Below, in pieces: positions 56,255-59,263 of a stretch of DNA of 64,000 nt. This stretch comes from an uncultured Clostridia bacterium (GTDB lineage Bacteria; Bacillota; Clostridia; Lachnospirales; Lachnospiraceae): contig CAOKVX010000009.1 in NCBI GenBank assembly GCA_948472945.1, positions 9,752 to 73,751 of the forward strand, given 5' to 3'. How positions within the stretch are numbered: position 1 is the stretch's first letter; each line of letters starts with the position of its first letter. The notes under the pieces were generated by a model. The model was not told the origin of the DNA and did not search any database. It was given only the letters and a program-made list of their open reading frames with translations. The position numbers were made by a program, and so were the translations under genes.

Positions 56255-57976
56255 ATGAGGATTAGCTTGACTATGAGTAAGTACGATGTAATAACTATTG
56301 ATGAGCTTGAGGTGTTTGCATACCACGGCGTAATGCCCGAAGAAAATATAGTTGGACAGAAGTTCTGCGTATCTGTCAGCTTGTATGCCGACACGGCGGC
56401 GGCAGGCGTGAGCGACGATATTGACTTAACAATAAATTACGCCAAAGTATGCGGGGATATAAAAAAGTTTGTAGAGGGCAATACGTTTAAACTAATTGAA
56501 GCGGTTGCCAATAAACTTGCGGACATGCTGCTGAAAAAATATAAAACAGTACAGAAGATTACTGTTGAGATAAAAAAACCGTGGGCGCCTATTCATCAGC
56601 CGTTAAATAACGTGTCAGTAAGGATAGAACGCGGATGGCATGAGGCGTATTTAAGCCTTGGATCCAATATAGGCGATAGAAAGCACAATCTTGACAATGC
56701 AGTTGCTTCTATTAAGAACGACGAATGCATTGAGGTTTGCGTCGTTTCAGACTATATTGTGACTGCGCCTGTCGGATTCACCGAACAGGAAGATTTTTTA
56801 AATGCGGCTGTAATGGTAAAAACGCTCTATGAACCGCATGAGCTCCTCGCAGTTATAAACGGTATAGAGGCATCCGGAGGACGAAAACGAGAAGTTCACT
56901 GGGGGCCTAGAACTATAGACATAGATATTATTTTGTTTGATAATCTTGTGATCGGTGATGAAAAGCTAAACATCCCTCACCCTGAAATGCTTAACAGGGA
57001 ATTTGTTTTAAGGCCTCTTGCCCAGATTGCACCATATGCGCTTCATCCAGTTCTTGGAGAAAGCGTGGCGAAGCTTTTGGAGGAATTTTATGAGAAAACA
57101 AAATATGTTTCGGGAGCGGACTATGAAATTGAATTTGAAGGGATAAACAGTCTTCGCATTTTTGAGGAGACAAAAATCGCCTATTTTGGTACGAAAGGGT
57201 CATATTCGCAGAGGGCTATGGAGAGTTTCTTCGGTGAAAGAGGCTACAGTTCGTATGCAATGCCATCGTTTACCGACGTCATGCGTGCGGTCGAAAGCGG
57301 AGAGGCTGATTACGGAGTTGTTCCTATAGAGAACTCCTCGACAGGCGGTATTACCGATATATACGACCACATAGGAGACTATAATATATATATTGTAGGC
57401 GAGCAGATAATAAAAATAGAGCATGCGCTTCTGGGACTTCCGGGCAGCTCAGTCGATGATATAAAGAAAGTGTATTCGCATATACAGGGAATAATGCAGT
57501 GCCCGTCATTTTTTGAGGCTCATCCACAAATAAAGCCGGTCGAGAAATCGAGTACTGCCGAGGGCGCCAGGCTTGTTGTAGAGGGAAAAGACAGGTCGGT
57601 AGGCGCAATAGCCGGAGTGCAGGCTGCGAGGGTGTACGGACTTGACATACTTGAAAACGTAATCAATGACAGGAATAACAACAGCACACGTTTCGTAATA
57701 CTTTCAGGCAGAAAAATATATATAGACAGCTCGAGGAAAATAAGCATATCGTTTGAACTCAAGCATGAGAGCGGTGCATTGTACAGAATATTATCTCATT
57801 TCTACCACAATGGAATCAACCTCGAGAAGATAGAATCCAGACCGATTCCTGAAAAGACATGGGAGTACAGGTTTTTTGTTGACATAGCAGGCAATCTGAA
57901 AATGCAGGGAGTTAAAAATGCATTGTCGGTAATAAACCGTGACGCCGACAATGTCAGGATTATCGGAAATTACTAG
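56255..57976 (+). CDS. Apparent fusion of FolB (dihydroneopterin aldolase), FolK (HPPK), prephenate dehydratase and ACT domain (likely start 56273)
   Basis: FAYHGV..EE and TINY (FolB); YLSLGSNIG, WGPRTIDIDI, IPHP (FolK); GSYS, VPIENSSTG, VYSHIQG, NSTRFVI, KIESRP, YRFFVDI (PDT-ACT); one open frame. Confidence 0.85.
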   Translation: MRISLTMSKYDVITIDELEVFAYHGVMPEENIVGQKFCVSVSLYADTAAAGVSDDIDLTINYAKVCGDIKKFVEGNTFKLIEAVANKLADMLLKKYKTVQKITVEIKKPWAPIHQPLNNVSVRIERGWHEAYLSLGSNIGDRKHNLDNAVASIKNDECIEVCVVSDYIVTAPVGFTEQEDFLNAAVMVKTLYEPHELLAVINGIEASGGRKREVHWGPRTIDIDIILFDNLVIGDEKLNIPHPEMLNREFVLRPLAQIAPYALHPVLGESVAKLLEEFYEKTKYVSGADYEIEFEGINSLRIFEETKIAYFGTKGSYSQRAMESFFGERGYSSYAMPSFTDVMRAVESGEADYGVVPIENSSTGGITDIYDHIGDYNIYIVGEQIIKIEHALLGLPGSSVDDIKKVYSHIQGIMQCPSFFEAHPQIKPVEKSSTAEGARLVVEGKDRSVGAIAGVQAARVYGLDILENVINDRNNNSTRFVILSGRKIYIDSSRKISISFELKHESGALYRILSHFYHNGINLEKIESRPIPEKTWEYRFFVDIAGNLKMQGVKNALSVINRDADNVRIIGNY

Positions 57977-58110
57977 TGAATTGATTGCACTATACTTTTT
58001 ATAACTAACCGGAATATAATCACTGTGCGCAATAAGGCGACCGTTTGACAATTTTTGTGATTAGGCTTCAGAGTATATAAAATTTTTTGTTGCAATACGT
58101 AATAATCACT

Positions 58111-58335
58111 ACAGGCGCTTGGAATTCGGAATTTTGAGCCTGTCAACCTAATCTTAGCGGTAGGTTGAACATTGAAAAGTAAATATTGTTCAGAACGGAA
58201 CAGCTAGAAATAATTGCCTTGTGATATTTCTTCGTCAGAAATTTGGAAGATGCAGTTAGCTTTCAAAAAGAAACGGTTGTGTGGAGACAATCCTTTTAAG
58301 GATGAGTGAACCGTGTGGTTGTAGTTCTGAACATA
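58111..58335. ncRNA. Candidate structured non-coding RNA (family not recognised)
   Basis: Nested helices: 10-bp perfect closing stem 58187-96/58324-33 enclosing two branched arms, preceded by two stacked hairpins; no long ORF. Confidence 0.4.
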
Positions 58336-58533
58336 TGTCCCCAAAATGCCCCAAAGTTTATCTATAGAATGAAAATCCTATTAAAGAAAGACAAGACATT
58401 GTTGCTAACTCACTTCTTATTCCAAATGCAATGAGCCTTACTGCTTCATCATTTATTACAATAACAGCGACGTTGACTAAGGGAGACATTGTAATTACAA
58501 GGAAAATGTTTGCGAGAGTCGCTGCAAAAGTAG

Positions 58534-58585
58534 ATGCCACCGCCTATATTTGGTATACTTAACTGTCAAATACAGGCGGTGGTAT
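58534..58585. repeat. 20-bp-arm inverted repeat with a 12-nt loop
   Basis: ATGCCACCGCCTATATTTGG / TCAAATACAGGCGGTGGTAT: 17 Watson-Crick pairs, 2 G-T pairs, 1 mismatch. Confidence 0.8.
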
Positions 58586-58648
58586 TGTAATTGAACAACA
58601 GCAGAAGTGAGTGTTAATCGTCTAACGATGCCATATTACATAACTATC

Positions 58649-58729: not shown

Positions 58730-59263
58730 ATGGCAGTAAATAATCCTATAGTGACGATAACAATGGAAAACGGCGATACCATAAAGGCAGAGCTTTATCC
58801 TGATATCGCACCAAATACAGTGAAAAATTTTATATCGCTGATAAAGAAAAAATATTATGACGGACTTATATTCCACAGGGTAATCAACGGTTTTATGATA
58901 CAGGGCGGCTGCCCGCAGGGAACAGGTATGGGAGGACCGGGCTATTCAATACCGGGAGAGTTTTCATCAAATGGATTTGAAAACAATCTTAAGCATACGG
59001 CCGGCGTGCTGTCGATGGCGCGTTCTCAGATGCCGGACTCGGCCGGCTCACAGTTCTTTATTATGCATAAAAACTCACCGCATCTTGACGGAATGTATGC
59101 GGCTTTTGGAAAAGTCACCGAGGGAATGGACAATGTCAACAAGATTGCCGATACGGATACGGATTATTCGGACAGGCCCTTAACACCGCAGATAATGAAA
59201 GCTGTTACGGTTGAACTTTTTGGCGAAACATATGATGAGCCTGAAAAACTGGAGGAATATTGA
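58730..59263 (+). CDS. Cyclophilin-type peptidyl-prolyl cis-trans isomerase
   Basis: APNTVKNF, YYDGLIFHRVINGFMIQGG, GVLSMAR, AGSQFFI, HLDGMYAAFGKV. Confidence 0.95.
   Translation: MAVNNPIVTITMENGDTIKAELYPDIAPNTVKNFISLIKKKYYDGLIFHRVINGFMIQGGCPQGTGMGGPGYSIPGEFSSNGFENNLKHTAGVLSMARSQMPDSAGSQFFIMHKNSPHLDGMYAAFGKVTEGMDNVNKIADTDTDYSDRPLTPQIMKAVTVELFGETYDEPEKLEEY

Follow-up and report, generated by a model that had tools for sequence, protein, structure and literature searches.

The window analysed here, a stretch of 64 kb, contains a FolB-FolK-PheA fusion gene (pheA) whose stop codon lies at 57976. It is followed, after a spacer of 753 nt, by ppi, which starts at 58730. A first-pass annotation had singled out 58055–58335 of this spacer as a multi-branched structured RNA candidate, to be understood either as an independent non-coding RNA of ~250 nt or as the structured end of a lost mobile element. 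The features that bear on these two proposals are the following.

58055–58083, plus strand: promoter-like match TTGTGA-17-TAAAAT (9 of 12 matches), probably fortuitous
58110–58215, plus strand: solo terminal fragment of an IS1182-like insertion sequence (IS), assigned by nhmmer; its left edge is the IS terminus, and the interior would extend to the right
58111–58143, plus strand: hairpin 1 (ACAGGC 58111–58116/GCCTGT 58138–58143), corresponding in the IS-family alignment to the terminal-repeat hairpin (family AGGCTC/GAGCCT)
58144–58167, plus strand: hairpin 2, abutting hairpin 1 (CAACCTA 58144–58150/TAGGTTG 58161–58167), corresponding in the same alignment to the IS subterminal hairpin (family CCGAC/GTCGG)
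58187–58196 and 58324–58333, plus strand: the 10-bp closing helix, TGTTCAGAAC/GTTCTGAACA
58187–58333, plus strand: the closing helix with its two enclosed arms, a chance inverted repeat linking the IS end to the transposase fragment
58219–58392, minus strand: pseudogene fragment of an IS481/Mu-like rve (DDE) transposase, residues ~281–333 of ~415, with in-frame stops

The candidate fold and its surroundings

All of the helices listed in the first-pass annotation are present, the inner hairpins included, and RNAfold reproduced both the 10-bp closing helix and the two abutting hairpins, with interior pairings somewhat different from those originally drawn. The stability of the fold was compared with that of shuffled sequences. 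For the full region (58085–58340) the z-score was −1.72 on the plus strand and −1.05 on the minus strand. A hand-picked interval ending on the 10-bp helix (58185–58335) gave −3.2 in one run and −2.9 in another, and at z = −3.2 this 151-nt sub-fold was more stable than 200 of 200 shuffles. Such values lie within the genomic background: when 1065 windows of 151 nt were taken arbitrarily from the 64 kb, 2.1% of them had z-scores of −3.0 or lower and 1.8% had z-scores of −3.2 or lower. Perfect inverted repeats with arms of 10 bp or more and loops of up to 150 nt were likewise frequent, numbering 19 in the 64-kb window against 9.2 ± 2.1 in shuffles, and five of the 19 had loops of over 100 nt. Since such repeats recur across the window, the closing helix is unremarkable. 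It does not exceed chance. The two abutting hairpins do, as their conservation in an IS family shows (see below).

The promoter that had been proposed for the RNA, TTGTGA-17-TAAAAT at 58055–58083, is probably a fortuitous match. Promoter-like sites are no more frequent in the region than expected by chance (three observed, with shuffles giving 4.3 ± 2.1). In a sister strain, 46 nt take the place of 58064–58069 (joint 58063>58070), a replacement that parts the two hexamers. The same scan detected no terminator-like site within the region. A cmscan search of both strands, as the annotation had proposed, returned no relevant match at E values up to 10; the best overlapping model in Rfam release 15 was mir-142 (E = 3.7; 18.7 bits against a threshold of 57), and the only models to reach threshold anywhere in the window were a T-box and a tRNA, both outside the candidate region. 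RNA-run contigs do cover the region, so that a lack of transcript was not what we obtained; this coverage could reflect either some transcription or DNA in those libraries. In metatranscriptome contigs the depth of the spacer attributable to this organism was 3–7, about as low as over pheA and ppi, and showed no discrete peak, these data being assembled Logan contigs that carry neither strand nor read ends.

Comparison with related genomes showed that the arrangement is not shared. In the closest species found (L001), whose FolB-FolK-PheA is 86% identical, pheA is followed by an AraC-type regulator and a glycosidase, and neither ppi nor a homolog of the spacer is present downstream. Nor was ppi found within the 4-kb flank, or a spacer homolog found, in L001–L004 and 49 more distant loci. 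Contigs of the same species (L054–L061) are at least 99.8% identical and thus uninformative on conservation. The sister strain, which is ~97% identical, keeps 58106–58400 with ~3% substitutions plus indels: a T inserted after 58226, a T>A change at 58225, the loss of 1 nt at 58349 and an additional 9 nt after 58381. None of its changes is compensatory, and two C>T substitutions (58230 and 58233) keep pairing as G-U. The strain also has ~108 extra nt before 58106, seen in DNA runs in the interval where the 46-nt replacement lies. The pheA–ppi spacer is an indel hotspot.

Further observations concern the rest of the spacer. In four mouse-gut runs (X16, X17, X25 and X28), extra sister-strain sequence is present at ~58063–58106, ~58399, ~58440 and ~58517, and the insertion at ~58399 measures at least 600 nt, possibly over 1.7 kb. 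At 58520–58617 lies a second module, a hairpin with 20-bp arms, whose depth in other organisms is very high, with maxima of 906x (DNA run X14) and 99x (RNA run X26). The copies in those organisms have AAGGAGG followed by an 18-codon ORF (MPPPIFGILNCQIQAVVL) inside the hairpin; the window's copy has no ribosome-binding site. Three viral-contig pattern scans and a plasmid blastn search retrieved no homolog of this module, only chance matches. On the minus strand, 58358–58540 encodes a 60-aa hydrophobic ORF (MASTFAATLANIFLVITMSPLVNVAVIVIN...) with no Pfam or NCBIfam match.

An insertion sequence end in the 5′ half

When metagenome contigs were placed on the spacer, depth rose in a sharp spike at ~58126–58203 (40–600x, against ~4–10x for the host strain), and this stretch therefore also exists in other, more abundant genomes. 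A blastn match to MT836936.1, a gut contig lacking annotation, together with a pattern search of metagenome contigs led us to more than 120 metagenome loci that carry the module. Aligned on it, the loci agree to the right of ATAGGCTC but are unrelated to one another on its left, which marks an element boundary. Full copies of this element, here called the reference IS, are 1848–1852 bp long and have 18-bp terminal inverted repeats. Their termini read ATAGGCTCTCGGAATC and ATAG(A/T)CTCTCGGAATC, or, in inverted form, ATAGGCTCTCGGAATC.. and ..GATTCCGAGAG(A/T)CTAT, and 4-bp target-site duplications are found in at least 11 independent copies. A 513-aa ORF on the strand opposite to the module encodes an IS1182-like DDE transposase, for which no Pfam match was found. 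Whole or internally deleted, the transposase adjoins the module in 61 of 113 loci, and the family includes internally deleted derivatives of 380–1315 bp that have both ends and target duplications.

The reference elements resemble the IS1182 family, including staphylococcal IS1272, in their single DDE transposase gene, their length of ~1.85 kb and their terminal inverted repeats of ~18 bp. They are also alike in having ends able to form stem-loops; IS1272 and some other IS1182 members combine stem-loop-forming ends with the targeting of palindromes (PMC5678879). However, whereas IS1272 replaces stem-loops without duplication, the reference copies make 4-bp target duplications. They differ further from the IS1182 family in lying ~10 nt upstream of a Shine-Dalgarno sequence and in their transposase, which matches the NCBIfam IS1182 model (NF033551) with E = 3.2e-10 and a score of 39.5 bits, far below the cut-off of 270. 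The window itself has only ~100 nt of one end, and no element.

A profile built from 16 full IS copies was searched with nhmmer over the whole 64-kb window and gave one match, which aligns 58126–58215 with IS positions 9–99 (E = 6.9e-18; envelope 58111–58235). By blastn the fragment is 86% identical over 78 nt to two of the metagenome loci (L064 and L123) and 78.7% identical to MT836936.1. Neither an IS transposase nor a second IS end was found in the 64-kb window with nhmmer and tblastn, so 58110–58215 is a relic and not an IS. It is the terminal ~100 nt of an IS1182-like insertion sequence, with two conserved subterminal hairpins. We also considered the whole spacer as one degraded IS placed upstream of the ppi ribosome-binding site, and rejected this because no second terminus lies where it would be expected and the nhmmer search was empty.

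Both hairpins recur throughout the IS family. Over 31 distinct sequences, counted as sequences and not as independent events, 93% of the cells of the two hairpins are paired, as against 17–50% when the 3′ partner is slid. For hairpin 1 the figure is 97%, and the changes are one-sided, from G-C to G-U only; for hairpin 2 it is 89% (again 17–50% with the partner slid), and GC to AU double changes occur in five sequences (columns 37–54). The non-Watson-Crick cells, likewise tallied by sequence, comprise 26 that are G.U on the plus strand and four that are A.C, an asymmetry that favours structure on the strand antisense to the transposase. We give no weight to the invariance of the TTGAAAAGTAAATATT...CAGAAC block across the family, which is an artefact of the search pattern. 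In the window's copy, hairpin 1 is altered by a local 7-nt duplication (TCGGAAT/TTGGAAT) and hairpin 2 has its helix register shifted by 2 nt.

Outside the window, the reference IS displays a strict target pattern, which we read in loci L068–L179 (for example L070, L074, L108, L112, L150 and L179). The transposase-proximal end is followed, 10 nt downstream, by the AGGAG core of a AAGGAGAAA-type Shine-Dalgarno sequence, with the ATG or GTG of many different host genes coming 5–9 nt after that sequence. At these targets the orientation is always the same and a 4-bp duplication is present. With its insertion point fixed upstream of the Shine-Dalgarno sequence, the IS therefore sits between genes and their promoters. 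One locus, L068, has two facing IS ends 7 nt apart (..GAGAGACTAT-TATAATA-ATAGGCTC..) about 20 nt to the left of the IS end; they stem either from two neighbouring insertions or from the junction of a circle or tandem dimer, and the 7-nt spacer TATAATA reads as a −10 box. The contig MT836936.1 (L062), which was deposited as an unverified 'Bacteriophage sp.', has a copy of the IS end at its start. Its genes include a relaxase, a MobC-like gene and a LytTR/histidine-kinase pair, and on this content the contig looks like a mobilisable element and not a phage.

A transposase gene fragment in the 3′ half

The sequence to the right of the IS end has a different origin, which the first-pass annotation had missed. 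On the minus strand, 58219–58392 can be read in a frame beginning DFHSIDKLWGILGTYVQNYNHTVHSSLKGLSPHNRFF... that retains 53–58 residues (~55 codons) of an rve transposase. A phmmer search with its 57-aa translation against 1.84 billion (1.84e9) representative proteins gave 31 matches at E ≤ 1e-3, with 40–61% identity over residues 1–53. The longer of these proteins have the architecture HTH_32 + rve + rve_3 + Mu-transpos_C, and their best NCBIfam model is IS481 (E = 3.6e-43, below the cut-off). When four of the phmmer matches were in turn compared with the window by tblastn, they aligned in one place, 58219–58392 on the minus strand (E = 1.6e-10 to 2.2e-9); against the spacer alone the fragment was found with E values of 1e-11 to 1.6e-13. 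Pfam gave a weak rve_2 match to the fragment itself (E = 0.064). No other piece of an rve transposase was detected in the 64 kb by tblastn, and a tblastn comparison of the pseudo-protein with plasmids yielded no match.

The likeness to IS481/Mu-like rve transposases (PF00665, rve_3, PF09299, NF033577) thus consists of an alignment at 43–50% identity (tblastn), confined to the part of these ~415-aa proteins that lies between the rve core and the Mu-type C-terminal domain. In contrast to them, the fragment has ~55 of ~415 residues, none of the region with the DDE residues, and in-frame stops. An intact frame with the DDE catalytic core is absent from it: two in-frame stops lie upstream, and residues ~281–333 of ~415 are what is left. 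It is a pseudogene fragment of a second element, unrelated to the IS.

An extension of this assignment was discarded. Past the TAG at 58204–58206, the minus-strand frame continues into 58126–58203 and there looks faintly Mu-C-like, but this stretch belongs by homology to the non-coding IS end, and aligning it would require a gap of 11 residues. A candidate integrase arm site at 58336–58355, suggested by a tandem ATGTCCCCAAA/ATGCCCCAAA repeat, falls inside the rve fragment and is pseudogene sequence; the repeat encodes ..LWGILGTY.., which aligns with ..LRGSLLAF.. of intact homologs.

The boundary between the two relics runs through the proposed RNA. The 5′ strand of the closing helix (58187–58196) sits in a conserved block of the IS, where the family has TGTCCAGAAC or TATCCAGAAC, i.e. 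T(G/A)TCCAGAAC. Because the family differs from the window there, the perfect 10-bp pairing depends on the window-specific T at 58190. The 3′ strand (58324–58333), most of arm 1 and all of arm 2 (about 58201–58315) lie inside the rve fragment. The 'RNA' is therefore stitched together from two relics. Consistent with this, a homolog search returned relatives of the 5′ part only, none with the full structure or with compensatory changes in the whole fold, and 58216–58335 had no homolog in the relatives' loci, in ~1.3 Mb of gut contigs carrying the IS family, or among plasmids or phages.

Readings of the spacer

These results favour a simple account of the spacer. We estimate a probability of roughly 0.86 that the 58055–58335 'structure' has no function of its own and that the 753-nt pheA–ppi spacer is a graveyard of mobile-element pieces. 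The region is ordinary debris of already known kinds. Piece 1 (58110–58215) is the last ~100 nt of a ~1.85-kb IS that is very common in gut Firmicutes; it retains the terminal inverted repeat, the two subterminal hairpins and the conserved unpaired block, the transposase gene and the second end having been deleted. Piece 2 (58219–58392, on the opposite strand) is a stop-interrupted internal fragment, ~55 codons long, of a transposase gene from an unrelated IS481/Mu-like element. The join is internal to both elements, so the two were most likely fused by an illegitimate deletion. The multi-branched fold arises from a chance complementarity between 10 nt of piece 1 and a stretch of piece 2, and the AT-rich pseudogene sequence in between makes the small hairpins. 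The earlier suggestion of a structured end of a lost mobile element accordingly holds for 58110–58215, an IS1182-like end with its two conserved subterminal hairpins, and does not extend to 58219–58392.

Four other readings were weighed against this one. An independent structured small RNA of ~250 nt, transcribed from the 58055–58083 promoter, is highly improbable. All of the listed helices exist, the 58185–58335 sub-fold has a z-score of −3.2 and RNA-run contigs cover the region; yet that z-score falls only within the top 2% of arbitrary windows despite its hand-picked ends. Such an RNA would have neither an Rfam match nor a terminator, and its promoter match, no better than chance, is interrupted by an insertion in the sister strain. 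Its halves have separate known origins, an IS end (5′) and a transposase pseudogene (3′). The 3′ half occurs in none of the more than 120 relatives of the 5′ half, and the arms have acquired uncompensated indels in the sister strain. A still-mobilisable, MITE-like IS derivative with a degenerate second end at 58324–58333 or nearby is scarcely credible. The internally deleted forms of the IS family (380–1315 bp), with their intact ends and target duplications, make such a derivative conceivable, but neither an unfiltered nhmmer search nor a mismatch-tolerant pattern search recovered a second terminal repeat in the spacer or the window, and the sequence to the right of the fragment belongs to the transposase of a different element. 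The absence of a second inverted terminus with a matching 4-bp duplication refutes this reading.

It is unlikely, too, that the orphan IS end has been co-opted locally, its hairpins serving as a pause, stabiliser or insulator for read-through from pheA, or as a decoy for the IS transposase. The ~14% divergence from the closest IS copies fits neutral decay, and against this divergence must be set the hairpins themselves, which have been kept, hairpin 2 having re-formed in a shifted register. No terminator separates pheA from the hairpins, and those of the IS family favour the strand that matches pheA transcription at the locus, but no U-tract follows them, the 7-nt duplication disturbs hairpin 1, the region directly to the left differs by ~108 nt between strains, and the relative L001 has no such element.

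A further reading looks to the active copies, in which the conserved end module of two hairpins and an unpaired block might be a functional transposon-end RNA antisense to the transposase, with the orphan copy still expressed and interacting with that system. The G.U to A.C ratio of 26 to 4, the GC to AU covariation in hairpin 2 and the depth in metatranscriptomes allow for this, which we nonetheless regard as very unlikely; contigs of the module do have very high depth in the assembled metatranscriptomes, a depth that many IS copies collapsed into one contig would also explain. The IS200/IS605 omega-RNA and the IS110 bridge RNA offer a parallel, being structured, conserved non-coding blocks at an insertion-sequence end, and the hairpins of the IS family share this character and show a strand-specific G.U pattern. 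However, omega-RNA and bridge RNA are components of TnpB and IS110 recombinase systems, whereas the transposase of the reference IS is of the DDE type. Unlike in those systems, no guide-like variable segment was found in the IS end, the window's copy is truncated, and Rfam omega-RNA and bridge-RNA models gave no match on either strand at E values up to 10.

Under the favoured reading, that the spacer holds debris of two mobile elements, only the abutting hairpins are a selected structure, and they are selected in the active IS and not at the pheA–ppi locus. The G.U/A.C asymmetry suggests that in active copies the hairpins of the strand antisense to the transposase probably function at the level of RNA or of single strands, perhaps in handling transcripts that read into the IS end.

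For the organism, the unusually long and non-conserved pheA–ppi spacer is explained as a rearrangement scar, because synteny with the nearest relative breaks exactly there, and a false non-coding RNA candidate is removed. There is also a lesson for similar cases: when an orphan spacer shows a tidy multi-branched fold, both of its strands should first be examined for transposase fragments and IS termini. The sole lead of wider interest lies with the reference IS family, whose insertions keep a constant distance to the ribosome-binding site downstream and whose end hairpins show a strand bias.
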